Assembly (NCBI GenBank): GCA_044229845.1
Contig: JBGASG010000005.1
Coordinates: 1 to 64,000 of the forward strand
Source: Candidatus Obscuribacteraceae bacterium
GTDB lineage: Bacteria; Cyanobacteriota; Vampirovibrionia; Obscuribacterales; Obscuribacteraceae
Length of the DNA: 64,000 nt
Direction of reading: 5' to 3'
Program-made: the position numbers and the translations under genes
Part shown: piece by piece, positions 44,306-60,161 of the stretch
Numbering within the stretch: position 1 is the stretch's first letter
How the letters are laid out: each line of letters opens with the position of its first letter
The notes under the pieces: model-generated
What the model was told of the DNA's origin: nothing
The model's input: the letters and a program-made list of their open reading frames with translations, nothing else
The model's database searches: none

Positions 44306-45523
44306 TCATCGCCGGTGAGCGGACGCGACCTTGCCTTTAGGGCTGGCTTTGCCGCTTGCCAGCATGGCATTGCTCAGTGCGATTGTTGCCAGCGGCTCAC
44401 GGGAAAAGGGCTTGAAAACCACCAGCTTGTGGCGCATTTTGACGTTGTACACGCTGAAGGTGACGTTGCTATTGATGTGACTGCTGGGCTTGCTTTTGCT
44501 CATGCCCGTATCGCCAAGTAGAGACGGGAAGAACAGGTTGCCCAGCTCGTCCTCCAGTCCGATATCAAATGTGGTGAACGTATTTTCGGTTTGATTCAGA
44601 ATGTCCAGGTTCAGCGTAATTTCGGTCATCTCGCCGAACGGGTGGCGGTCAATGCGCATGCCCGCCACCTTCACCTTCAGACCCGGACTGCAGAAATCTT
44701 CCGCCGTCTCATCGGGCATGGTCATGGTGGGCAGTTTCAGCGGCTCGCTGAGTATGACTTGCATTTCAGCACCGGGCGGGAGCATGACGCTTTTACCCTT
44801 CGTCAGCATGGCGATTGTCAGCCCGGCAGCGCCACCAATGGCCGCTCCACCAGCCAGGGCGGTCCCGTGGCTGGCGGCCGCGGCCGCCAGACCGCCATAT
44901 TGCAGCACCAGCACTGTACCTACCACGCCACCAATGGCGGTGAAGCCCAAAGCGCGCCCGACAACTTTGGCTGCGGACTTGCCTTTGGAGTCCCGCGTGG
45001 TGCTGTTGCCCTCAATCGGGATTTCACGCCCGTCAGGCGTGATTAAGTAATCAAAGCGCGCATTGATGTAGCCATTGCGGCCCGCACGCTTCGGCCCTTC
45101 AAGAGTGCTCAGCACTCCGTGCAGCACTGTGCCCCTGGGTATCACCACCTGTCTATCCACCAGCACGTCCTTGATGATTTTGCCGTAGAACTCATCGCCT
45201 TTCGTGGTCTCGTCGGCATCAATCTCGTTCGAAAGAACCAGATCCAACGCCGTGCCGGGCGCCACCTCACGCACATCCCCCGTGTTGACGGTCGGGCTCG
45301 GCGGTTGCGGACTGTTGTACTCGGTCTGGGTAATGGTGCTGCGCAGCGCCGGGGACTCGCCGCCGTCGGTAGGAGTGTCGGCGGACAAAACGGACAGCGG
45401 GGCGCCGGCGCTCAGGCTCAGCACCAGACCCAAGGCGCACAGGGAACGGATGACTGACGGTCGCGTCCGGTTACGGGGCTCAAAGGTTTCTTCCATGGGT
45501 CTCCGGGGCACACAGCCTGACAT
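44306..45523 (-). CDS. Secreted TrbI/VirB10-like beta-barrel protein with glycine zipper
   Basis: GT.L.L.L...ID......GDEF....VIP.GT...G pattern and AGGAAIGGAAG; alternative start 45496. Confidence 0.6.
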   Translation of the reverse strand: MSGCVPRRPMEETFEPRNRTRPSVIRSLCALGLVLSLSAGAPLSVLSADTPTDGGESPALRSTITQTEYNSPQPPSPTVNTGDVREVAPGTALDLVLSNEIDADETTKGDEFYGKIIKDVLVDRQVVIPRGTVLHGVLSTLEGPKRAGRNGYINARFDYLITPDGREIPIEGNSTTRDSKGKSAAKVVGRALGFTAIGGVVGTVLVLQYGGLAAAAASHGTALAGGAAIGGAAGLTIAMLTKGKSVMLPPGAEMQVILSEPLKLPTMTMPDETAEDFCSPGLKVKVAGMRIDRHPFGEMTEITLNLDILNQTENTFTTFDIGLEDELGNLFFPSLLGDTGMSKSKPSSHINSNVTFSVYNVKMRHKLVVFKPFSREPLATIALSNAMLASGKASPKGKVASAHRR

Positions 45524-46559: not shown

Positions 46560-46708
46560 ATGAGAAAGCAAACGGTTAGTCGTCGTCTTAAATACCCGGT
46601 ACCACAATTCAAAATGGCATTGCTACGCGAAAAGGAAGGCAAGACGTTTGAAATCTTCAGACCGAGTGATGTCGAAGAGTTCGTTGAACCATTGAAGCAT
46701 TGCAGCGA
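46560..46708 (+). pseudogene. radC: RadC/JAB-domain gene 5' fragment interrupted by the RIT element
   Basis: LKYPVPQFKMALLRE....IFRPSDVEEFVEPLKHCS breaks exactly at the RIT end motif TTATGTG; radC is a known RIT target. Confidence 0.6.
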
Positions 46709-46794
46709 TTATGTGTCCCAGGAGAATATGTTCCGGCGCAGTCCAGAACCCCGATATCAGCCGGGGGGAGGTCGTGGGTCCGGGAACATAAATG

Positions 46795-47802
46795 TCATAG
46801 AGAATCGAGCCATCTCAGCAGCGCTGCATCATCGCGCCAGCGAACATCAGCGTGGGCCTCTTCGTTTGATGTCGGTGGCCGACATGTTTTCATCGCTTCT
46901 TCCTTCATTCTCATGTTGATTTCCGCGTAGCGATTAGTTGTGTCGAGACTGACATGACCTAGCCATCCGCGAATCACATTTACTTCGACACCGGATTCGA
47001 GCAAATGAATCGCCGTCGTATGGCGGATGACGTGCGGCGAAACAGGCTTTGCAGAGCCATTCGTGCGCTTCTTCTTGATCTCGGCGGTGTGCTTGCGAAC
47101 AAGCTTGTAAATGCCGAATCTAGTCAGTGGTCGGCCGACATTTGACAGAAAAACTGGTTCTTGCGGAACGAAATTCCGACCGACGAGCATGCTTCTCAAC
47201 GTCTCAACCGTTTCTTTCCAGAGTGGGCAAGTTCGCCACTTTCCGCCCTTGCCATGCAACTGAACTCGCATTGCGTCCAACTCAAGTTGCTGCAACGTCA
47301 GACCTGCTACCTCTTGCACCCGGGCACCAGTGTTGTACATAAATAGGAGAATCGCTTTGTCTCTGAGACTCAGAATTGGCTTGCTGTCCGTGGATGCGGA
47401 TTTGAGCATTTGACTGATCTCCTCTATCTCCAGAAAGAACGTTTCTGGCGGATGACATCGCTTTACCTGGATAGTGGCTATCCGTTGCGCTTCCATAACG
47501 TACTCCGGTATGCGTGAAGCCATGTATTCACAAAACGTGTGCATAATGGCCAACCGATGATTGCGCGTTCGGATGGAATTGTGCCGATCGGTTTCTAGCC
47601 AGCGAAGAAACGCCGTGATTGACTCAAGGTCGAAATGGCGCAACTCTAACTTGGTGATCTTGCACTTTGATTTCTTCGAGGCAAATTGCAAATACAGGCG
47701 CAATGCGTCTCGATAGCTCTTCACGCTGGATGGAAGCAATCCTCTTTGGATGGGCAGATAGTCCACCAAAAATGAGTGCAAGACGTCTCCAATCTTGTTC
47801 AT
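46795..47802 (-). CDS. Tyrosine recombinase RitC
   Basis: TGARVQE, HGKGGK, HVIRHT, LGHVS and RYAE catalytic residues. Confidence 0.93.
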   Translation of the reverse strand: MNKIGDVLHSFLVDYLPIQRGLLPSSVKSYRDALRLYLQFASKKSKCKITKLELRHFDLESITAFLRWLETDRHNSIRTRNHRLAIMHTFCEYMASRIPEYVMEAQRIATIQVKRCHPPETFFLEIEEISQMLKSASTDSKPILSLRDKAILLFMYNTGARVQEVAGLTLQQLELDAMRVQLHGKGGKWRTCPLWKETVETLRSMLVGRNFVPQEPVFLSNVGRPLTRFGIYKLVRKHTAEIKKKRTNGSAKPVSPHVIRHTTAIHLLESGVEVNVIRGWLGHVSLDTTNRYAEINMRMKEEAMKTCRPPTSNEEAHADVRWRDDAALLRWLDSL

Positions 47803-48776
47803 AGATGCACCTCCCGTAGTGCTTCCATTGCCAACTTCTGGAAGCGAGTATTTGCTTCATCCAGCAATCCGTCCGTGATAGTCAAATAGACCGCCGTGTG
47901 CTGCAGCTCGGAATGTCCAAGAAAAGTAGCGAGCGGAAGCAAGTGATGAGAGGGATCTTTTCCTTCCCGATAAAAACGCATAAGAGTGTTGACAGCGAAG
48001 GAGTGTCTTAAGTCGTGAAACCTCGGTTCTCGCTGTCCAGCAGCCGGACGCAAATCCAACGCGAGCGTTAACTGTCGAAAGGTTCGCCATGTATTGCATG
48101 AATGCATAGCGGTTCGATCCTCGTGCCACCGGAACACCCGCTCCGATTTGTTCTCAATTTCCGAGTCGTTCACATACAAGCTGAGCTGTTGCGCCAGCTT
48201 AGGCCCCATCGGCAGGTAGCGGCTCTTACCGAACTTTGAGTTGGCGATCAGCAACACATTGCGTTCAAAATCAATATCGCCCACTCTTAAATTGCAGATC
48301 TCACCGACCCGCATTCCGAGCCCATACCCGAGTAAGATCATCATCTGCCATGTTGCTGCACGACGGTGAGCGTTAGACGTATCGTGCAAATCACTTGCTG
48401 CTGACAAAAGCCGCCGAACGTCTGCAGGCGTGAAAATGAATGGTAGCAATTTTTCATTGACTTGCCGCCGTTTCGTTCTTATGGGTGATACGCAGATTTG
48501 TTCTTGATTAACCATCCAATCAAACAGACGGCGAATGATCCCTAACCTGTAGTTGTGGGTTGTTGCCTGCATCGATGCCGATGACCGGAAGAACTGATCT
48601 ACGATGGCACCATCGATCTTGTCGATCGTTTGCACGCCAGTCTGCACCAGATAGCGATCTAGTGCTCGAAATGCCGGTTCCTCTGACTTGTACTTCTTAC
48701 ATAAGGCTCGCTTGTGCTCCAGGAATTGTTCAATTGACTCGGCTAAGCAGCTTCGATATCCAGTCCACTTTTTCAT
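47799..48776 (-). CDS. Tyrosine recombinase RitB
   Basis: GMRVGE, SKFGKSR, HDLRHSFAV, FLGH and VYL motifs. Confidence 0.93.
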   Translation of the reverse strand: MKKWTGYRSCLAESIEQFLEHKRALCKKYKSEEPAFRALDRYLVQTGVQTIDKIDGAIVDQFFRSSASMQATTHNYRLGIIRRLFDWMVNQEQICVSPIRTKRRQVNEKLLPFIFTPADVRRLLSAASDLHDTSNAHRRAATWQMMILLGYGLGMRVGEICNLRVGDIDFERNVLLIANSKFGKSRYLPMGPKLAQQLSLYVNDSEIENKSERVFRWHEDRTAMHSCNTWRTFRQLTLALDLRPAAGQREPRFHDLRHSFAVNTLMRFYREGKDPSHHLLPLATFLGHSELQHTAVYLTITDGLLDEANTRFQKLAMEALREVHL

Positions 48777-50038
48777 AGCAGATCCTCCGCGAGTCCCATC
48801 GCCAGTTCCCGCAGAGACTCAATGTCCACTTTGGAATAAATGCGGGTTGAGTCCGGCGATTTGTGACCGACATAATCACCGATCAATTTCAACGAGAATT
48901 GCGCATCGACGAGTCTTTGAACGCATGTGTGCCTGAGCGTATGAGAACCACGCCTCGGTATATCTACGCCGGAAAGACGTAAGTAATGTACGGCGCGTCC
49001 AGACACCGATTGCCACGACATCGGCGTGACTGGGGCCTGCATACAGAAAAACAAGGCGCGTTCTTTCGTCTTCGGACGATCTTTCTCCAGATATTCGAGA
49101 ATCGCCCTGCCCACAACGCTCGACAATGGATATCCCGTGGAATGACCTGCCTTGCGTTCCCGAATAAGAAGCCGCTCGCTTTTCCAATCGATGTCATCCA
49201 GTGTAATGGCAGCCACTTCGCGCGCACGTAATCCGTACGTTACCAACAAGAGCAGAATTGCGTAGTCGCGTCGACCAACTGAAGTGCGGAGGTCGACTGC
49301 CTCTAACATTGTGCGCACTTCATCCCACGAAATCGACCGAGGCAAGTTTGCCAGGTCGTAAGAGTGGGGAAGTTCAACGACAACACTTAGATCTCGCGTC
49401 AGCAGCCGTTCTCTATAGAGGTACTTCAACATGACTCTGATCGGGCTTAGCACGCGGCTCAAAGACGCCTTGCCTAAACGATCTTTGGTATCAATAACAA
49501 AGCTGCTTAGAATGGGCGGAGATAGCTCGCCTACATCCACCACACCAATTCGATCAAGATAAGATTGCAACAAACCAAGCGAGTAATCATAGACGCGCAA
49601 GGATGCCTTGCTCAGCCCTCTCTCTTCCCTGAGGAATGCAAGAAAATCGTCCATAAATGCAAATCGCGCAGCATACGTGCGTCGGCGGCGGGACCGTCCG
49701 TCATATCCGGGCAGAATAACTGATAGCATCTGGCGAATGCATCCATGAACTTCTCTTTTGAAAACTTCCTGCCGATTTTCAGATCTGCCGAAACGGCTCC
49801 GCTCCTCGAAGTAACGGGCGAAGTCAGAAACGTAATGTTCGAGATGGGAAACGTTTGTGGCTCCCTGCTCCTTGGCGTAATCGCCAAACTGAACTAGCAA
49901 TGGGATTTTTCGATGAATCGTTCGCACGGAATGCTGCTGTTCTTCCATCCACGCGAGATACTTTTCTATCTCAAATGCAATCCATGATTGCCGTATTCTG
50001 TCGATCGTTTTTGGTTTCGAATAATAGTCTTCCAACAT
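48773..50038 (-). CDS. Tyrosine recombinase RitA
   Basis: RDYAILLLL.TYGLRARE, HTLRHT, VGHKS and IYSKVD motifs. Confidence 0.93.
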   Translation of the reverse strand: MLEDYYSKPKTIDRIRQSWIAFEIEKYLAWMEEQQHSVRTIHRKIPLLVQFGDYAKEQGATNVSHLEHYVSDFARYFEERSRFGRSENRQEVFKREVHGCIRQMLSVILPGYDGRSRRRRTYAARFAFMDDFLAFLREERGLSKASLRVYDYSLGLLQSYLDRIGVVDVGELSPPILSSFVIDTKDRLGKASLSRVLSPIRVMLKYLYRERLLTRDLSVVVELPHSYDLANLPRSISWDEVRTMLEAVDLRTSVGRRDYAILLLLVTYGLRAREVAAITLDDIDWKSERLLIRERKAGHSTGYPLSSVVGRAILEYLEKDRPKTKERALFFCMQAPVTPMSWQSVSGRAVHYLRLSGVDIPRRGSHTLRHTCVQRLVDAQFSLKLIGDYVGHKSPDSTRIYSKVDIESLRELAMGLAEDLL

Positions 50039-50184
50039 TCGGAATCTCCTTTCGAAGTGAGTTCGAATGAAGATCTTCCTCGTGGACCAATAAACAATGT
50101 GGTCCCGTCGATATGCTTAATCGCCGTCCGCTCGCGCCGCAGTCCGGAAGCGAGTGACTGTCCAAATGTTGCGGCGGTTCGTCG

Positions 50185-51957
50185 TTAGGTCACTGCTGTT
50201 AACCGATTCTTGCCGCCAAGCATCTTCTCTAGCCCGGTCGTATCCGAAGGCGATTCCGGCAGCCACTGAACGACGGCAACTCGACTGGAGAGTTGCTTCA
50301 CTTCATCAATGTAGAGCTGCTCGACTTGCTGACGTGCCAGCAAAGTCGGATTCTTGGTTTGAACAGGGGACAGCGATTGATTGATGACCCAGGCAAACGG
50401 ATAGATATCCGCCCGCGCCAAATCTTCCTGAAGGCGCTTTGCCTCATGCACCGGAGTTGCTTCAGGCAAAGTAACGATCAATATGCGCGTGTAATTCTTG
50501 TCTCTCAGGCGCGGCAACAGGTTGATCACTGAGTCTGGCATGTTGCTCGATTGACGCAGCACCTCTTTGTGATATGCCTGGGCCGCATCCAACAACAAGA
50601 TAGTGTGCCCGGTTGGTGCTGTATCCAGAACGACAAAGCCGGACTGCCCAGCGGCTACCTTATTAGCAAAACTTCTAAAGACGGCTACTTCCTCGGTGCA
50701 AGGTGAACGCAGATCTTCATCAAGGAGTGCACGCCCCTGTTCATCGAGGTTGCCACCAGCAGTCTGCATAACTTCGTCTTGATAGGCTTTTGTTTCTTCC
50801 GTAGGATCGATTCGACTAATCGTCAAAAGAGGCACAGGATTCTCAACAACCCATGCAATGTGCGCAGCAGGGTCTGTTGTGGTCAAATGCACAGGGTGAC
50901 CGCGACGAGCCAACTCCACTGCTATCGCTGCTGCAATGCTCGTCTTGCCGACGCCGCCCTTGCCCATGGTCATGATCACGCCCTTGCCCGATTTCTCCAA
51001 GTCATTCACAAGCTCCATTAAAGGCGCCGGGAGTTCTTGATCAGCGGCCAATCCATCAAAAACATGAGCGGAGTGGTCTGCCTCAAACATAACGCGCAGC
51101 GCGTCCACACCAAGTAGGGGTCTTGCGCTGAGCAGCACCTCAAGGGTCGGAAGGACTGACAATTCTTTCGGCATAGAGCTCACCGCAGACTGTCCACGGA
51201 TCAAAAACGCAGATGCGATAGCATCGCCCGTGGTATCAGCCTTCAGCACGCCGTTGAGAACCAGGCATTGATTCTGCACGCCAATCTCCCGCAATTCAAC
51301 ACTCGTTTTCGCCGCCTCTTTCAATGCCGACTGTTCTGGCCGCGATACTAGTATCAGCGTAGTGCGAGCACCGTCCATCAGCGTGCGCACGGATGAAGCA
51401 TAAACTTCTTGCTGCTGTTGGAGTCCTGACAGGGGTCCGAGGCAAGACATGCCGGTTGTATTGTCTTCAATAAAAGTAGTCCAAGACTTAGGCAGCGACA
51501 AGAGCCGCATTGTATGCCCCGTCGGTGCGGTATCAAAAATTACGTGATCGTAGTCAGCGGTGTGACTGGCGTCGCCCAGAAGACGTGCGAATTCATCAAA
51601 TGCAGCTATCTCAGTGGTGCAGGAGCCGGATAGTTGCTCTTCCATACTCTTCAAGCTTGCCTCTGGCAGAAGTCCTCGGTACGGTCCCAACAGCCTCTCC
51701 CGGTACTCGCGTGCGGCCGCCTCGGGATCTATGTTGAGAGCGTCAAGCCCTTTCACACCAGGCACAGCTGTTGGCGTGGAGCTAAGCTCAACGCGCAAAA
51801 CTTCATCCAGGTTTGACGCTGGATCGGTGCTGACGAGAAGCACTCGCTTCCCGGCGTCGGCAAGAGCTATGGCAGTTGCGCATGACACCGAGGTTTTGCC
51901 CACACCACCTTTGCCAGTAAAGAACATGTACTTGGTGGCTTGTTCAACAAGATTCAT
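50185..51957 (-). CDS. arsA: Arsenical pump-driving ATPase
   Basis: Two GKGGVGKT P-loops, two DTAPTGHT motifs, SGSCTTE and SPCTEE. Confidence 0.97.
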   Translation of the reverse strand: MNLVEQATKYMFFTGKGGVGKTSVSCATAIALADAGKRVLLVSTDPASNLDEVLRVELSSTPTAVPGVKGLDALNIDPEAAAREYRERLLGPYRGLLPEASLKSMEEQLSGSCTTEIAAFDEFARLLGDASHTADYDHVIFDTAPTGHTMRLLSLPKSWTTFIEDNTTGMSCLGPLSGLQQQQEVYASSVRTLMDGARTTLILVSRPEQSALKEAAKTSVELREIGVQNQCLVLNGVLKADTTGDAIASAFLIRGQSAVSSMPKELSVLPTLEVLLSARPLLGVDALRVMFEADHSAHVFDGLAADQELPAPLMELVNDLEKSGKGVIMTMGKGGVGKTSIAAAIAVELARRGHPVHLTTTDPAAHIAWVVENPVPLLTISRIDPTEETKAYQDEVMQTAGGNLDEQGRALLDEDLRSPCTEEVAVFRSFANKVAAGQSGFVVLDTAPTGHTILLLDAAQAYHKEVLRQSSNMPDSVINLLPRLRDKNYTRILIVTLPEATPVHEAKRLQEDLARADIYPFAWVINQSLSPVQTKNPTLLARQQVEQLYIDEVKQLSSRVAVVQWLPESPSDTTGLEKMLGGKNRLTAVT

Positions 51958-51996
51958 TTAGGCTCCTTTGAAAATTTTGCTCTGGCACTTCGATGA

Positions 51997-52437
51997 TTAG
52001 CAACAAGAGGATTTCTTGTTTGATTTCTTTTCGGCGGTTTCGTCGCAGCAGGCGTCTTCCGTTGCCGGGACACTGCAGCAACCGGAACCCGCTGAAGAAG
52101 TTGGCTCAACGGTGACCTTCAATCCAGGTTTTGGAGCTTCAAGACCGGCCAAGTGAGCGAGCTTTTCGCGCGTTGGATAAGCGCCCTGTACAACGATTTT
52201 GCCATCTATGAGAATCAAAGGTAAGCAATCATTGCCATGCTCCTTAAGCGCAGTGGTGACAGTTGAATTACTGACGAAGGACTGGGGTTGCTGAGAGAGG
52301 TTGTATCGTTCGACCTCAACGCCCTGGCGCTTCAACCAATCGAGATCCGCACTAAATGCCACAAGAGCGGGGTCTACGCCCGGACCGCAAATGCCCGTCG
52401 AACAGCACATCGGTGGATCGAATATTTGGAATTTCAT
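51997..52437 (-). CDS. arsD: Arsenite metallochaperone ArsD with Cys-rich tail
   Basis: IFDPPMCCSTGICG, RYNLSQQP and YPTRE motifs. Confidence 0.95.
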   Translation of the reverse strand: MKFQIFDPPMCCSTGICGPGVDPALVAFSADLDWLKRQGVEVERYNLSQQPQSFVSNSTVTTALKEHGNDCLPLILIDGKIVVQGAYPTREKLAHLAGLEAPKPGLKVTVEPTSSAGSGCCSVPATEDACCDETAEKKSNKKSSCC

Positions 52438-52474
52438 GTTCACTCTCCTTACTTGTTTTCGCACTTGTTGGTCA

Positions 52475-53563
52475 TTAACATTGCTTACTGGAAGTTCCTT
52501 TCTCATACCAGCCTTTGCTTGTATTGACGATTTTGACAACAGCGAGCATTACCGGTACTTCAATGAGCACACCAACCACTGTGGCAAGCGCGGCGCCGGA
52601 GTTGAAGCCGAATAGGCTGATCGCAGTAGCTACGGCCAGTTCAAAGAAATTGCTGGCTCCGATCAATGCCGATGGACATGCGACGCAGTGGGCGACGCCG
52701 AATTTTCTATTGAGCAAGTATGCAACCGATGAATTGAAGAACACCTGAATCAGAATAGGCACCGCGAGCATCGCAATGACGAGCGGTTGCTTGAGAATGG
52801 CTTCTCCTTGAAATGCAAAGAGCAAAACAAGAGTTGTGAGTAGAGCGGCCAGTGAAACCGGATGCAGAAAAGCTAATGTTTTATCGAATGCTTCTTGTCC
52901 ACGCTTCAGTAACGCGGACCTCCACACCTGTGCAATCAAGACCGGTATCACAATATACAGCCCAACAGAAATGAATAGTGTGTCCCAAGGAACCGTTATA
53001 GAGGACAAGCCCAACAGCAAACCGACAATCGGCGCGAATGCAAAGATCATGATTACATCGTTGACAGCGACTTGCGAAAGCGTGAAGTACGGATCGCCCT
53101 TAGTCAGCTGACTCCAGACAAATACCATGGCGGTGCATGGCGCAGCAGCAAGCAAAATTAACCCTGCGATATAGCTGTCAATCTGATCATTCGGAAGATA
53201 CGGAGCGAACAGAACACGAATAAATACATACGCGAGCAGGGCCATAGAAAACGGCTTGATCGCCCAGTTTATGAACAGCGTGACGCCTACGCCTTTCCAG
53301 TGTTTCTTCACTTGCCCCAGAGCGCTGAAGTCGATTTTCAAAAGCATCGGCACAATCATTAACCAAATCAGCAGTCCGACGGGAATGTTGACACGAGCTA
53401 CTTCGAGCGAGCCGATCAATTTGACCGGACCGGGCAAGAGTTGGCCAAGAATGATCCCGGCTGCAATACAGAGGAAAACCCAGACAGTTAGCCAGCGCTC
53501 GAAGAAACCAATCGTCGCCTCCCTTTGCTCCTTATCCACGATGTCAGTTGGCGAGACGCTCAT
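52475..53563 (-). CDS. acr3: ACR3-family arsenite efflux transporter
   Basis: FFERWLTVWV, APCTAMVFVWS, GASNFFELAVA and GVLIEVPVML motifs. Confidence 0.96.
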   Translation of the reverse strand: MSVSPTDIVDKEQREATIGFFERWLTVWVFLCIAAGIILGQLLPGPVKLIGSLEVARVNIPVGLLIWLMIVPMLLKIDFSALGQVKKHWKGVGVTLFINWAIKPFSMALLAYVFIRVLFAPYLPNDQIDSYIAGLILLAAAPCTAMVFVWSQLTKGDPYFTLSQVAVNDVIMIFAFAPIVGLLLGLSSITVPWDTLFISVGLYIVIPVLIAQVWRSALLKRGQEAFDKTLAFLHPVSLAALLTTLVLLFAFQGEAILKQPLVIAMLAVPILIQVFFNSSVAYLLNRKFGVAHCVACPSALIGASNFFELAVATAISLFGFNSGAALATVVGVLIEVPVMLAVVKIVNTSKGWYEKGTSSKQC

Positions 53564-53570
53564 TTCTCGA

Positions 53571-54167
53571 TTACGCCTCCGCCACTTCATTTGCCGTCGA
53601 GGTCGCTGGTCCACATTGAGTGCCAGGTTCGCAACACGGGCCCGATGAAGCGGTATTGGAACACGACTGTTTTGATGCGGATCTGTTTAGCAACCAGAAT
53701 GATCCAGCAATGGATAAAGTGGTAATGCCGGCCACCAGCGGCTTTGCAAACGGCAAAAAGCCCGCTCCCAGTAAACTTATGTAGACACCCAACATCGGCG
53801 AGCCGCAACAACCGGTCATCCAGCATCCTGCGAATCCAAGAAGCGCGGAGAGGCTCAGACCACCTACGGCTGCTCCTTTGGCAGCGGCTTGTGCCCGATG
53901 TTCAAAGAATTGCCGGATGGCAAATGCAGCAAAAGCCAGAGGCAATGCAATCGAATAGCCGAGCAAGTAACTCTGCGTGCTGATGTATTGGCTGCCGACT
54001 GCGGGCGGGGCTGCACAGGCAGTCTCGCAACTTCCACAGCCGCTTTCGGCCCCGGAGGAAGATCCACCCGAGAGCGCGAACCAAATAAAGTGTCCTGCAA
54101 ATGCCATGACAAAGACAGACAGCGGAAGCAGCGCTCGAACAAGTTTATTGCTGGTATGTTTACTCAT
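53571..54167 (-). CDS. Cys-rich 4-TM membrane protein of unknown function within the ars operon
   Basis: CGSCETAC loop, GCWMTGCCGSP in a TM, C-terminal PCCEPGTQC; tightly spaced between arsC and acr3. Confidence 0.75.
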   Translation of the reverse strand: MSKHTSNKLVRALLPLSVFVMAFAGHFIWFALSGGSSSGAESGCGSCETACAAPPAVGSQYISTQSYLLGYSIALPLAFAAFAIRQFFEHRAQAAAKGAAVGGLSLSALLGFAGCWMTGCCGSPMLGVYISLLGAGFLPFAKPLVAGITTLSIAGSFWLLNRSASKQSCSNTASSGPCCEPGTQCGPATSTANEVAEA

Positions 54168-54193
54168 GAGTTGTTACCACTGTGTTTCGTCTG

Positions 54194-54592
54194 TCATTTA
54201 GTCACTTTTGTTTTGGCGAGTTCTTCGACCTTGGCTTTGATCTCGTCACGCACACGCCGAAACACATCGAGTGGCTGACCTTTCGGATCTTCAATATTCC
54301 AATTCGCTTGCGTGCCAATGAAAGTCGATGGGCAGAAATCAGACGTTTTGACTGAACACATCGAGATTATCGCGTCATAGCTTGCAAGCTTCTCGTTGTC
54401 TATGGCCTTTGAGAACTGATTCGAAATATCTATACCTGCTTCCGCCATTACGTTGACCGCGTTAGGATTTACGCCAGACCCAGCTTTCACGCCAGCGCTT
54501 TCAGCTTCGAGTCCGACCTGGCGTGCAAAGCCCTCCGCAATCTGGCTGCGACAGCTGTTCTCCACGCATATAAATAAGACCTTCAATTGCAA
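54194..54592 (-). CDS. arsC: Arsenate reductase, LMW-PTPase (thioredoxin) type
   Basis: LFICVENSCRSQIAEG, C..C pair, WNIEDPKG and FRRVRDEI motifs; TTG start approximate. Confidence 0.88.
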   Translation of the reverse strand: MQLKVLFICVENSCRSQIAEGFARQVGLEAESAGVKAGSGVNPNAVNVMAEAGIDISNQFSKAIDNEKLASYDAIISMCSVKTSDFCPSTFIGTQANWNIEDPKGQPLDVFRRVRDEIKAKVEELAKTKVTK

Positions 54593-55047
54593 CACCCCTT
54601 CTTTGTGTTTTGTACTGATACTGTCTCTGGTGCGCAGCACGAAGCTTTGCTTTCGCGCAACAACTGCACATCTTCGCCGTACGTGGTCGCTTCTCCGATG
54701 GTCAAGAATGACTCCCAAGCGATTCCTTGCGGGTCATGCACCCAAGTCTTGTCAGATTGCGCGTAGCAACACGTGGTTTTCTCCTGTTCGAGAATTTGTT
54801 GCTTCGCATCTTTCAGACGAACAGTGATTTCTTGGAGTGACTGTTCATCTTCAACTTGAATTCCTAGATGATCAAGACCCGCCTGCGCACCGCGCTTCGA
54901 AATGGCGAAGTTAATGCGCGGATCGTCCAGCATCCACTTCGCGTAGTCTTCTTTTTCGACAGTGGGCTTGGCGTTGAAGAATGTCGAATAAAACTGAATG
55001 GATTGCTCCAAATCAGCTACGGCAACATGTACGTGAAACCTTTTCAT
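54583..55047 (-). CDS. arsI: ArsI/CadI-family glyoxalase-fold protein (C-As lyase-like)
   Basis: MKRFHVHVAV, YAKWMLDDPRINFAIS, HLGIQV and TTCCYA.SDKTW.DPQG..WE motifs. Confidence 0.85.
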   Translation of the reverse strand: MKRFHVHVAVADLEQSIQFYSTFFNAKPTVEKEDYAKWMLDDPRINFAISKRGAQAGLDHLGIQVEDEQSLQEITVRLKDAKQQILEQEKTTCCYAQSDKTWVHDPQGIAWESFLTIGEATTYGEDVQLLRESKASCCAPETVSVQNTKKGCCN

Positions 55048-55346
55048 TGGCATTTGCCTCCATTGTCAGCGCAGCAATTCTCAAGAAGAAAGTTGATCAG
55101 CTTCTGCATATGAGCGAAGTCTGCCGAATAGATGATCGAACGACTTTCCCGTCTGGACGTAATTAGTCCGGCGTTGGTCAATTCCTTTAGATGGAACGAC
55201 ATTGTGGCTGGCGGAAGTCCTAGCCGCTCACTCAACTCACCAGCAGCCAGCCCGCCCGGGCCGGTACGCACCAGCAACCTGAATACTTCCAAACGTGATT
55301 CTTGAGCCAGGGCAGAAAGTGCCCGGACCGCGTCTTTGCTTTTCAT
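55044..55346 (-). CDS. arsR: ArsR/SmtB transcriptional repressor (C-terminal CC type)
   Basis: ALSALAQESRL.VFR.LV, MSFHLKEL and FLLENCC motifs. Confidence 0.93.
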   Translation of the reverse strand: MKSKDAVRALSALAQESRLEVFRLLVRTGPGGLAAGELSERLGLPPATMSFHLKELTNAGLITSRRESRSIIYSADFAHMQKLINFLLENCCADNGGKCQ

Positions 55347-55382
55347 ATTTCCAATATTATCGAACTGTCGAAATAATGTCAA
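55347..55382 (-). promoter_or_regulatory. Sigma70 promoter and ArsR operator of the ars operon
   Basis: TTGACA (55382-55377), 17 bp, TAATAT (55359-55354), then 7 nt to ATG; overlapping dyad TATTTCGA-CAGT-TCGATAATA. Confidence 0.8.
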
Positions 55383-56277
55383 GGCGGCCTCCAAAGTTTG
55401 AGCATACCGGGGACGCCCTGACGCTTCATCGACCGAGCGGAGATCTGCCAATCATCCTTTTTGAGTATTAGGCGTAAATCGCTGGAGATTTATGTTCCGC
55501 GATGCAAGTGCTCAGTCAGCTGCAGCAGGCGTTGTCGGAAACGTGGGCACATATCCATATGCATTGGAACGGGCGAAGGGTTCGCGATCGAAACCACACT
55601 TAGGACCTTAATTGCTTTCAATCGCAAGCAGCAAAGAAAGCTGGTTTCTATAGAGAAATGATTTACATATGCGGTGGCGAGTTCGAGAATTGCTTGATGC
55701 GCGTTGTTGCACGTGGTTTGGCTGGAGGACATTCGGCGCCGGCCCAGCGCCTTCGGGAGATATGCCAAGCGAGCGTGAGAAATCTGCTGCGAGCAGTCCG
55801 AGAGATGGATGGCATTCGCGTGTACCACAACAGTCGTGCCGGGCCACCATAATTGGTACTGGAGGCGATCGGTGGCAAGATGATCCTACAATCAAGCAAT
55901 GCTACAAGCGTTGGTTCAAGCCGGTCCCGAAGAAACGGGAATCTTCGAACCCGGCAGCAGCGGAGTCCCCGGACTGCACAGTTTTTACTCCACCTGATTC
56001 CGGGCCCATTGGCCGATGCAATTCAAGAGACTCCAGACACTTTGTGTCGGATCTGACAATTCGTGCGGAATGCTGTATTTGCCTAACTCCAGTGCTCTCA
56101 TACCCTCTTCCAGTATTGCGTCTTTGCCTTTGTTATCGTCACTAAACCCCAAGGCATGAGTGATCATTCCTTCCAATTCACCGTGTGGAGCAATGAACAA
56201 TCCAAAGGTCGCTAATCCCCGAATGAGGTTTTCAGCTGATGTGCGATGAGGTGGGCCCCGACCTTCGGGCCATTTTC

Positions 56278-57218
56278 CTATATTGGCAAGCTAGTCTTTG
56301 CCGTGGTTGTGTCTTCCTTTACTGATACCACATACGATACTACACGGTCAAGTCCTATTTCCATGTTTTCTCTTTCTCTCGTTGTTTGGTAAACCTCCCA
56401 GGGTGTGCTGTAGCCGAGTGCCTGATGAGGACGCTCGAAGTTGTAGAAACGGAACCAGTCCGCGATGCTCGCTCGTGCTTCTTTGATGTCCTCGTACGCC
56501 TTTAGATAGACCTCTTCGTATTTGAGACTCCTCCAGAGGCGTTCAATGAAGATGTTGTCGAGGAATCGCCCTTTGCCGTCCATGCTAATGGCTATCCGCC
56601 TGTCTTCCAAGACGCCGGTGAAATCGTTGCTTGTAAATTGAGCGCCCTGATCCGTATTGAAGATCTCTGGCGCGCTGTAAGCCAGTGCGTCTTCAAGGCT
56701 TCCGTGCAGAAGCTTGTCTCCATCGAGTTTGATAGACGCCAGGACAGCACGAATCGGCTGTGCCAGTCGATGATCGCGACGAGATAGAGAAAGCCCTTCC
56801 TCATGGGTACGTAAGTGATGTCTGCGGCCCAGACCTGATCAGGGCGGTCGATAGTAACGCCGCGCAGCAGATACGGGTAAATCTTGTTTTCAGGTGCCGG
56901 CTTGCTGGTGCGCGGCTTGCGGTAGACCGCCTCTACACCCATTTTTCGCATGAGTCGCCGAACACGCTTTCGATTGACGGCATAGCCAGCCGTCTTCAGG
57001 GTCTCGGTCATGCGGCGACTCCCGAAGAATGGCGTCTTCATGTATTGCTTGTCGATAAACTGCATTAGCTCCAGATCCTGTGCGGTGGCTTCGGCCTTTT
57101 CGTAGTAAAGGCTCGACCGGTTTATTTCTAGCAGTTCGCACTGATGGCGAATAGATATGGATTTGTTGTCGTGCTCGATCAGCGAGATTCGCTGATCACG
57201 GCTCAGTGACCGAGCTTT
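56278..57218 (-). pseudogene. IS3 transposase OrfB with an internal 1-bp frameshift near 56695
   Basis: WAADITY is in one frame; PEIFNTDQGAQF, MDGKGR and IERLWRSLKYE are in another. Confidence 0.8.
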
Positions 57219-57490
57219 CGTGATAAAAAATCGTTCTCAACTTTCAGCTTGCCAATTTGTTCAAAGAGCTGCGACACGCTTTGGTCGGATAGCTGATCAC
57301 CCTTGGTTGCCGGCGCCTTCTCGAACACTGACGCTGCGTTTTCCAATAGTGCCTTCTTCCATGCGTGTATCTGGTGCGGATGCACCTCGTACTGACTGGC
57401 GAGCTCCGCTACGGTCTTTTCACCGCGCACCGCTTCCAGTGCCACTTTCGCCTTAAAGTCGGCGCTGTGCTTTTTCCTACTTCTCTTCAA
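57203..57490 (-). CDS. IS3 transposase OrfA
   Basis: [16 protein letters not shown]...[11 protein letters not shown] motif. Confidence 0.92.
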
Positions 57491-59122
57491 TTCGGCCTCT
57501 TTCTAGCATTGCTAGTTTAGAAGCAAAGGTGTCACTTAGCCAGTGGCCTAAATTGTTGGGACCAGCTCACGAAGCACGTTATCCAGCAAACGAAGACCTT
57601 GACGCTTCAATCGGACTTTGAATGCTTCGTCTGCAGTAAACAAGTTTTGCAACTCTAACTGCAACTCGCTGAGCAATTCCAGAATTTGCTTTTGGTCGTC
57701 GTGAGGAATTTGCAGACGATCAAGAGTCGCCTTTTCCCATTTAATACCTTCAGAGTAGAGTGCGTCGAAGTCAAGCAAGGCTGCCGTCGGGGTGCCTGTC
57801 TTACGCATCACTTGCGCTACTTTTAGTGCTTGGGCATAGCTTCCTGCTGAAACAAAATGTGAATCACGAATGCCACAACTCGGTCTCTGTTGCTGCAAAC
57901 ATCTGTTGAATTCAGTGTAGGCAATCTTATCGAACGCCCCTTCGACGACAACGGTTGCGTCATGAAAGATCCCGTCAAGTGCGTCCGTATTGCGAACTAC
58001 CCGGTCCATGACGAATGGCTCCAGTGCGGATTTCGATACCACACTTGCGGTGCCGTGATCTGATTTCTTTGAGTACGTCAAACGAGCCATTGCAATATCA
58101 TCTGTGCTACTCACGCATCCAGCGACGAAATCGGCGCTGTGCGTTGCGACAATTAGCTGGCCGCTACGTTTTGCGATTTCGCGAACCAAATGTTGAGCAA
58201 ATCGGTTTGCGAGCGGAGGATGCAGATGTAGTTCTGGCTCGTCCAGCAAGACTAGTTTATGTTCGAATGGAAAAATAGACAACACCAGACCGATGAAGGC
58301 ACGGAGTCCATCTCCGAATGAATCTATGCCGATGCCCCGGTCATAATAATCTTGCAGTGTTTTCGATATTATGACTCCAGGCATTTCAATAGGGGGTTGC
58401 TCAGGATTCAATTGCAAGTGCAATTGGCCGCTTTGTAGCTTTTGCACCGCTACGTAGTATCCAGATGCGGGATAAACAATCTCGTTTACTTTATCCAAGC
58501 GCGCTCTATCAGCCAATAAAAGATGATGCACCCAGCGATATCGGTCGCCAGGAATGATGGTGCTAGCGTCTGAATCGCCCGTTATAGCTGTGATACTGTT
58601 CAGCGATGCCATTCTCCGCAATCTGCCGAGATGATTACTGCGCCAGCTCTTCTGATTGAAAAAATTGGGCGTGCAGAACTCTCGCAGAAAAAGGTCAGTG
58701 GCGTTGGACTTTAGGTCTGGTTCGTTTTCCCATTTTGAGTACTCCGCTTCTGAGTATTCCACGAGCTTTAGCGGTTCTAGAAATTTGATTGCCTCATTCC
58801 TATCGAGAATCTTGAACGATGCGTCGCGGAACAATCGTGGCTCTATCGTCTCATGACTGCCGTCATACCATTCCTGAATAGACAACGTAGCTAGCGTCTT
58901 TCCCGACTCATTGGGACCAACAAACAATAAAACGGTTGGTAAGTGTACGGTTTCTCCAGGTTCGGCTCTTCGTGGGCCGTACTTGAATGTGAGTGTATGT
59001 ATTCGGGCCATTTGCAGTATGGTTTTCCCTAAGTGCCCCGGTGATGCCCCGCCAAAATTGGCCACCCCACAAAAAAACCGCTTCGATCTGCGCAAGCGGC
59101 ATCCGCACCAGAGGGGAGAAAT

Positions 59123-59196
59123 TGCGCCGAGAGGGATTCGAACCCCCGACCGACTGGTTCGAAGCCAGTTACTCTATCCAGCTGAGCTATCGGCGC
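59123..59196 (-). tRNA. tRNA-Arg (anticodon TCG)
   Basis: GCGCCGATAGCTCAGCTGGATAGAGTAACTGGCTTCGAACCAGTCGGTCGGGGGTTCGAATCCCTCTCGGCGCA folds as a cloverleaf; loop CTTCGAA; CCA not encoded; TATAAT at 59213-59208. Confidence 0.95.
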
Positions 59197-60075: not shown

Positions 60076-60161
60076 CATTTCACGAATCCGCCACGAACGT
60101 GACACGAACAGTCCACGAACGTGCCACACTCAAGCCACGAACCTGACACAACTTATCCACG
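60076..60161. promoter_or_regulatory. Array of 8 direct repeats at exact 11-bp spacing (core CACGAA/CACA)
   Basis: CAC cores at 60081, 60092, 60103, 60114, 60125, 60136, 60147 and 60158; last unit TTATCCACG. Confidence 0.65.

Follow-up and report, generated by a model that had tools for sequence, protein, structure and literature searches.

The locus

The window analyzed here is the whole 64,000-nucleotide stretch of Candidatus Obscuribacteraceae DNA (G000:C22:1-64000), from an assembly of 5.16 Mb that is 88% complete. Between 46 and 56 kb it contains the ritABC genes of a recombinase-in-trio (RIT) element and, upstream of ritA, an arsenic-resistance (ars) operon, and both are bracketed by RIT-type ends (Table 1). 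An earlier note on this DNA had proposed that they form a cargo-carrying RIT of 8.9 kb, or that a leftover 3' end of a second RIT makes them a composite.

The three rit genes are adjacent, in the order A-B-C, with overlaps of the 4-8 bp expected of RITs. All are full length, and a motif search located the catalytic R...H-x-x-R...H/Y residues in 3/3 translations. The best match of each gene in a RIT trio of plasmid pHG1 was the gene at the same position (28-35% identity). RitA with two core-binding domains and RitC with an extra C-terminal helix are typical of RITs (PMC8138268); in the window, about 125 residues without domain assignment precede the SAM domain of RitA, and the RitC tail is conserved. 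Judged by sequence, ritABC is a RIT trio.

All seven ars-cluster genes lie on the minus strand, as ritABC does, in agreement with the earlier note. arsR, arsC (by PF01451), acr3, arsD and arsA are thus on one strand, as in an ars operon, and homologous operons in three relatives (G020, G023 and G032) share 72-80% DNA identity with it. The operon is predicted to provide ArsR-controlled detoxification through ArsC, Acr3 and ArsDA, whether or not the element moves.

Table 1. Features of the ritABC-ars locus, in window coordinates (S1-S4, RIT boxes; see text)
Feature	Position	Strand	Evidence
radC 5' half (JAB/RadC family), interrupted by the element	46563..46708	+	29% identity to the intact RadC encoded in this genome (residues 1-51; E 6e-5)
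Intact ritC-side (3') RIT end	46709..46791		S1 46709+, S2 46726+, S3 46791-
ritC, tyrosine recombinase, 335 aa	46795..47802	-	PF00589; R, H-x-x-R, H/Y motifs; best pHG1 match, third trio gene, 33%
ritB, tyrosine recombinase, 325 aa	47799..48776	-	PF00589; catalytic motifs; ATGA overlap; best pHG1 match, second gene
ritA, tyrosine recombinase, 421 aa	48773..50038	-	PF00589 and PF02899; catalytic motifs; ATGA overlap; best pHG1 match, first gene
Degenerate ritA-proximal box S4, cargo boundary	50071..50081	+	Position matches S4 of relatives
arsA, arsenical pump-driving ATPase	50185..51957	-	TIGR04291, 782 bits (cut-off 650)
arsD, metallochaperone	51997..52437	-	NF033727 above cut-off
acr3, arsenite exporter	52475..53563	-	TIGR00832 above cut-off
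Cys-rich predicted membrane protein, no named family	53571..54167	-	No Pfam or NCBIfam match
arsC-like arsenate reductase (LMW-PTP fold)	54194..54592	-	PF01451; below three NCBIfam arsC cut-offs
ArsI/CadI family metalloenzyme	54583..55053	-	NF041414 above cut-off
arsR, regulator	55044..55346	-	NF033788 above cut-off; 93% identity to G032 ArsR
Possible decayed ritC tail, weak	55450..55489	+	z 1.5; 6-8/100 shuffles equally good; HMM match begins at 55472
ritC-side-type end of second RIT	55490..55554		S3 55490+, S2 55554-, S1 absent
zeta/AAA_33-like P-loop ATPase gene, 3' part, frameshifted, without 5' half	55576..55873	+	57% identity to residues 82-172 of G034 homolog

The left end interrupts radC

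To score RIT ends, we built a weight matrix from 42 boxes of eight relatives' RIT loci, without any window sequence, and hidden Markov models (HMMs) from 12 ritC-side and 9 ritA-side ends of relatives, which were searched genome-wide. A complete end in relatives has S1 outermost; S2 follows 17 bp towards the inside, and S3, in inverted orientation, comes after about another 65 bp (less in L041 and L098-L100); S4 lies about 35-45 bp before the start of ritA. In addition, a 20-bp palindromic box pair is found outside one end, on the ritA side or the ritC side depending on the element (towards the radC 3' half in L042 and L090). The left end in the window carries S1, S2 and S3 with scores of 15.1, 12.6 and 15.2 bits, and the ritC-side HMM matched it at 46709-46830 (E 3.4e-19). 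No palindrome flanks the element at this locus.

The left end interrupts a radC gene, a point absent from the earlier note. Insertion of RITs into radC has been described, for example for ritA2B2C2 of Cupriavidus metallidurans CH34 (accessible parts of PMC2864759 and PMC3414803). The 5' half in the window shares 37% identity with the radC of L042, which is likewise interrupted and continues with its 3' half past the RIT. The junction codon of the window recurs in L042, on both sides of L089, and in L136 and L137. Of this radC the window has the 5' half only: the 3' half was found neither to the right of the element nor elsewhere in this 88% complete genome, and no second 5' half was found on the right side.

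The right-hand end is of the ritC-side type

We searched the 5.16-Mb genome for S2-S3 pairs, defined as convergent boxes 63-67 bp apart, and repeated the search with 60 control spacings. The two high-scoring pairs of the genome were the two ends of this unit: one at 46726 (27.8 bits, span 66) and one at 55490 (29.3 bits, span 65), with the next best outside them at 19.4 bits. The control spacings gave one match at 27.7 bits, whose span of 83 is the left end's own S1-S3 distance. These scores rule out the right-hand end as a chance occurrence.

The motifs quoted in the earlier note were all in place, and 55488-55498 is indeed the exact reverse complement of 46783-46793; counting both strands, the window has two copies of this 11-mer and the genome three. 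The gap between the ATG and CAT cores is 56 bp on the left, as had been given, and 55 bp rather than 57 on the right. That the outermost site is not conserved on the right also held: S1 is absent, and all scores at 55565-55579 are below -13.

To determine the type of the right-hand end, we compared its between-box sequence, with the boxes removed, with those of 11 ritC-side and 8 ritA-side ends. It scored z 6.0 against the former versus z 1.3 against the latter; similarly, the ritC-side HMM matched 55472-55559 with E 1.7e-6 (next match in the genome, 0.65), whereas the ritA-side HMM gave E 1.4. On these values the right-hand end is ruled out as the element's own ritA-side end, and the suggestion of a composite with the 3' end of a second RIT is supported. 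The best matches of the right-hand end were the ends of L089, L090, L041 and L042 (z 5.0-5.9; 27-28/45 identical to the ritC-side ends of L089 and L090), whereas the window's left end gave z 2.3. The resemblance of 55450-55487 to a ritC C-terminus, also raised earlier, was seen again and is weak (Table 1). By eye, a stretch at about 55455-55465 with the look of a ribosome-binding site resembles the ritA leader; we set it aside, as it is wrongly spaced and no significant match to the ritA-side HMM was obtained.

Beyond this end lies the 3' part of an ATPase gene. Its DNA match to three homologs begins at 55576-55580, and the gene may start as far left as about 55557. The end is not a part of this gene, since the DNA alignments to the three homologs stop at 55576. 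The 5' half of the ATPase gene was not found elsewhere in the genome; the search returned a full-length but distant paralog and one weak match to a P-loop, and nothing else. Because the right-hand end is of the ritC-side type, lacks S1 and is followed by the ATPase gene, it is, on these similarities, a truncated end that derives from another RIT and is fused into a gene other than radC.

The arrangement is unlikely to be an assembly artefact, because four sequencing runs not flagged as possible sources of the assembly cover all 30 bins of the locus and their contigs bridge both ends. Contigs from X15 and X16 cross the left end, and one from X14 crosses the right end. At the ritA-arsA junction, an X16 contig has 30 letters on the ritA side, one fewer than the bridging rule requires. 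Overall, 20 of the 24 listed runs contain at least half of the 9.9-kb stretch; they come from 11 studies, mostly of sludge, bioreactors and biofilm, and 11 rows of the listing are flagged as possible sources. Runs with 0.67-0.89 of its words lack no part of it (30/30 bins covered).

The boundary between ritA and arsA

No S1-S3 terminal set is present between ritA and arsA, where the earlier note likewise had seen no outward terminal pair, and this includes the region around 50100-50185: the sole box above 3 bits scores 7.3 at 50164 and is in the wrong orientation for S2. The S4 of the window is degenerate, with three differences from the intact S4 of a branching contig in run X16. This contig departs from the window at 50074 and continues through the intact S4 into other DNA; that alternative flank was found in 0/104 family genomes and is also absent from this genome and from the relatives' loci compared. 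The start codon of ritA (50027-50040) itself sits in box-like sequence, as in relatives and most clearly in L041, which may reflect autoregulation or a second cargo boundary.

The ars genes fit tightly between S4 and the right-hand end. S4 is about 105 bp from the arsA stop codon, and the end of ars homology (55382) is about 110 bp from S3. The gap between arsA and ritA gave a fold z of -0.85, which is no sign of a terminator or of an attC-like structure. Read-through from arsA into ritABC is possible, because a simple scan found no minus-strand terminator in this gap.

Cargo in related RITs

To place the window's trio among its relatives, a RitA tree of 19 rows was constructed, leaving out L088 (99.99% identical to L089 and counted once with it), L046, in which ritA is truncated, L096, in which it has a frameshift, and the distant trios (about 30% identity). 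The window fell into a clade of 10 of the 19 rows with support of 100/99. All eight clade members with visible upstream DNA have foreign DNA before S4 or ritA; the remaining two are truncated rows. Outside the clade, S1-S3 stand directly before ritA in 4/4 family RITs with visible upstream DNA. Of nine matches to plasmid RITs, six were fetched; five are canonical, and the sixth is cut by IS21. As far as the sequences tell, cargo is a trait of this RitA lineage, and the general idea of cargo-carrying RITs put forward earlier is supported by these relatives.

The clade's cargo RITs (L041, L042, L090, L091, L093, L055 and L089) share 71-77% RitA identity with the window. Cargo ranges from 0.7 kb in L042 (DUF7919), through 0.8 kb up to the contig edge in L091 and L055, 1.15 kb in L093, 1.2 kb in L041 (DUF6882) and 1.35 kb in L090 (SMI1/KNR4 and L7/L12 domain), to 9.1 kb in L089, where RND-efflux, ChrB, DoxX, hemerythrin and TauE genes are followed by ritABC. 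In the six RITs with small cargo the main cargo open reading frame (ORF) faces away from ritA, whereas the ars operon of the window reads towards it. L042 is a clean insertion, with a radC 5' half, the RIT with its 0.7-kb cargo, and the radC 3' half in succession. The boundaries of exchange are sharp: identity between L088 and L090 (90.9%) begins at the first base of S4, and that between L041 and L042 (93.7%) at the ritA start codon. L041 and L091 hold different genes, yet 15 bases at the far S3 (by eye) and a stretch of about 140 bp preceding ritA are common to both.

L089 (745-13338) is a composite of 12.6 kb with three intact boxes at both ends and the same layout of two ritC-side ends as the window. 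A clear ritC tail accompanies its far end (z 7.8; HMM E 5e-11), and its flanks are two inverted radC 5' regions, 84% identical to each other.

RIT ends also occur apart from complete elements. The pair pattern was found in 13/104 family genomes, as against 5 control matches in 4 genomes. Eight pattern matches lay away from known trios, and four of them passed the ritC-side HMM: L136 (9740-9850) and L137 (9528-9610), which sit in radC 5' remnants without a rit gene within 8-9.7 kb, and L139 (5804-6055) and L142 (937-1052), which adjoin rit fragments. These orphan or tandem ends are possible non-autonomous RIT derivatives. L138, L140, L141 and L143 were rejected as RIT ends, having neither a significant ritC-side HMM match nor an outer box.

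In wider searches, a single-protein scan of 185,579 genomes returned one locus. Among viral contigs, none had the end pattern, and the RitA alignment gave one distant match. Separately, one genome (G082:C2) holds four copies of a distant RIT of 3.5 kb, 99.8% identical (L051-L054). Three of the four have similar flanks, which look transposase-like by eye; one copy has a 20-bp palindrome-like pair on its ritA side, and two have it on the ritC side.

Origin of the arrangement

We give about an even chance to the reading that the intact ritABC with its ritC-side end in radC, the ars operon and the truncated end of a second RIT make up a composite cargo RIT. The unit is probably stranded, because no second copy, empty site or end-to-end joint was found. 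According to this reading, RitA, RitB and RitC would bind the S1, S2 and S3 boxes (about 10 bp, WTATGTKBC), and recombination with a site in radC would take place 5-6 bp outside S1; both box binding and crossover point are drawn from tyrosine-recombinase precedent and the radC junctions. In this RitA clade the ritA-side end would have become uncoupled from ritA, with foreign DNA entering a slot upstream of S4. In the window copy, the slot content would have been replaced by the ars block and a recycled RIT end, and a later deletion or aberrant crossover beside S2 may have removed S1 and whatever lay beyond, leaving the end fused partway into the ATPase gene. In favor of the composite are the ritC-side type of the right-hand end, the upstream cargo in 8/8 clade members as against canonical RITs outside the clade, the clean insertion of L042, the recurrence of the layout in L089, the change of cargo at fixed places (including the X16 branch at S4), the tight fit of the ars genes in the slot, and ars loci of relatives in which no RIT pair was found.

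Several observations weigh against the composite. The ars unit is single-copy in this genome, so that the search for the 8.9-kb unit in other flanks came back empty, and no empty site was found. In 60 relatives, ars and rit matches were, among the matches listed, on separate contigs. No end-to-end joint, circular or inverted, was seen in the contig sets of four runs, which have depths of 1-7x and, as contigs, drop rare forms. The X16 branch at S4 is a single contig from a single run, with perhaps 30 fitting letters. A weak S3-like sequence was noticed by eye at 50095 (below 3 bits), spaced from S4 by close to the canonical distance; it could be the remnant of a once canonical ritA-side end. 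L089 is no simple insertion, and its flanks fit two insertions with deletions as well as one mobile unit. Because orphan ends without rit genes occur in the family, an end near ritA need not have travelled with ritA. Finally, RIT movement is listed as untested in the accessible parts of the literature.

Two further results stand beside these. A RIT pair was found at none of 13 ars loci of relatives in 10 genomes (best score, 12.0 bits), most of these loci being short. Three joints did turn up in the four contig sets; their sides were of 24-25 letters, and they were set aside as likely artefacts.

The orphan ends bear also on a second explanation, in which two RITs inserted independently, one on each side of an ars operon that already resided in a low-GC island, their inner parts were deleted, and the ars genes never moved with the ends. 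We regard this as possible but doubtful. It would account for a far end from another RIT subgroup than the left end and for flanks that are halves of two different genes; the region from 46 to 59 kb is low in GC (0.50 vs 0.55) and contains an IS3 element and a tRNA-Arg gene, and complex, truncated RIT combinations have been described on pHG1 (available portions of PMC2864759 and PMC3414803). However, it requires two deletions, each halting about 100 bp from the operon, leaves unexplained why 8/8 clade members carry slot cargo with boundaries at S4 or the ritA start, and does not predict that the same layout recurs in L089 with other metal-handling cargo.

That the 8.9-kb unit is mobile today, with S2 as its right terminal box and the radC and ATPase flanks produced by its own recombination (an adjacent deletion), is unlikely: all three recombinases have their full length and their catalytic motifs, the two right-hand boxes match the left ones in score, and by eye the ATPase frame fits from about 5-6 bp outside S2, as host DNA does outside S1 at other junctions, but every complete end in relatives has S1 17 bp outside S2, secure ATPase homology runs from 55576 only, and the unit is single-copy with no joint in the four shallow runs. 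The clean mobile unit of the earlier note is not supported by its flanks, for want of a radC 3' half, nor by the missing outer box, the single copy and the lack of a joint in those runs. Nor does the locus have the matching terminal inverted repeats of about 30 bp that delimit a RIT on both sides, as the ritA side is without S1-S3 and the far end is ritC-type without S1. Instead of about 3.5 kb without passengers, it has 8.85 kb between the outer boxes and seven ars-cluster genes, and its flanks are a radC 5' part on the left and an ATPase 3' part on the right rather than two halves of one target.

Returning to the composite and its relatives, we tentatively propose that RITs of this clade in Obscuribacterales-like bacteria have an exchangeable slot upstream of ritA, at which RitABC might swap genes at S4, from single small ORFs to metal-resistance operons of 5-9 kb, and recruit the ends of other RITs. 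If so, the RIT slot would be a third gene-capture platform based on tyrosine recombinases, beside integrons and the GInt/SE elements. Arsenite could then induce the recombinases, as the ars operon reads into ritA and no terminator was found. A clade of near-identical trios with different slot genes (arsenic, efflux) in wastewater bacteria would also give RITs a role in the spread of adaptive genes. Four mapped boxes, a fixed radC codon and natural cargo variants offer natural substrates on which the RIT mechanism can be tested; the window copy is probably a damaged example of limited value in itself, and the L089 composite is the better test substrate.

Neighboring features

The Cys-rich membrane protein between acr3 and arsC has a 67% identical homolog at the same place in the ars cluster of G020 and is absent from that of G032; its nearest Atlas clusters are unnamed. 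It is a candidate for a new ars accessory gene.

To the right of the ATPase remnant, an IS3-family element (56247-57569) has its orfB split in the assembly; four runs show an extra base behind 56693, and the split is copy-specific or an assembly error. An OLD-like ATPase/TOPRIM ORF (57548-59196), possibly an anti-phage gene, lies beside tRNA-Arg(TCG). Past this tRNA gene the GC content climbs from about 0.50 to 0.56, which suggests an island border; no att repeat was found there, that is, no duplicate beyond other tRNA-like matches. A short repeat array with an 11-bp period occupies 60090-60161. On the left, the 5' part (45000-45505) of a TrbI-like ORF (44306-45523) shows 76-90% DNA identity in most matches across many family genera, which is high for the group.

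Comparison with known systems

In composite transposons, two element ends bracket passenger genes and one side supplies the enzymes. The window is alike in both respects; its ends, however, would be tyrosine-recombinase sites of two non-identical RITs and not two insertion sequence copies, and its mobility is a candidate property.

RITs are described as elements of about 3.5 kb with three genes, terminal repeats and a palindrome, and truncated combinations occur on pHG1 (PMC2864759 and PMC3414803, in the parts accessible). No report of cargo-carrying RITs was found by title or opening of the abstract; the main RIT paper, by Ricker et al. (Plasmid, 2013), that by Van Houdt et al. (2009) and supplements were outside this scope and may mention cases. 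With the RITs of C. metallidurans CH34 (ritA2B2C2 in radC) and C. necator pHG1 the window shares the A-B-C trio, ATGA overlaps, insertion in radC and terminal inverted boxes. It differs from the described RITs, which have three genes only: 5.4 kb of ars genes stand where these have a ritA-side end, the far side is closed by a second ritC-side end that lacks the outer box, and no palindrome flanks it.

GInt/SE elements and Tn554 combine several tyrosine recombinases with cargo genes, as the window does, but according to the accessible text of PMC10214605 they need a fourth protein (GinD, Srap or TnpC). None stands beside the window's trio, which is flanked by the radC half and arsA, and the proteins of the window, unlike those of GInt/SE, match the RitA, RitB and RitC positions. 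The closest counterparts are the cargo RITs of the same clade: they, too, have foreign DNA directly upstream of S4 and use radC as target, and L089 also shares the layout and metal-handling cargo, whereas their far ends, where visible, carry all three boxes.

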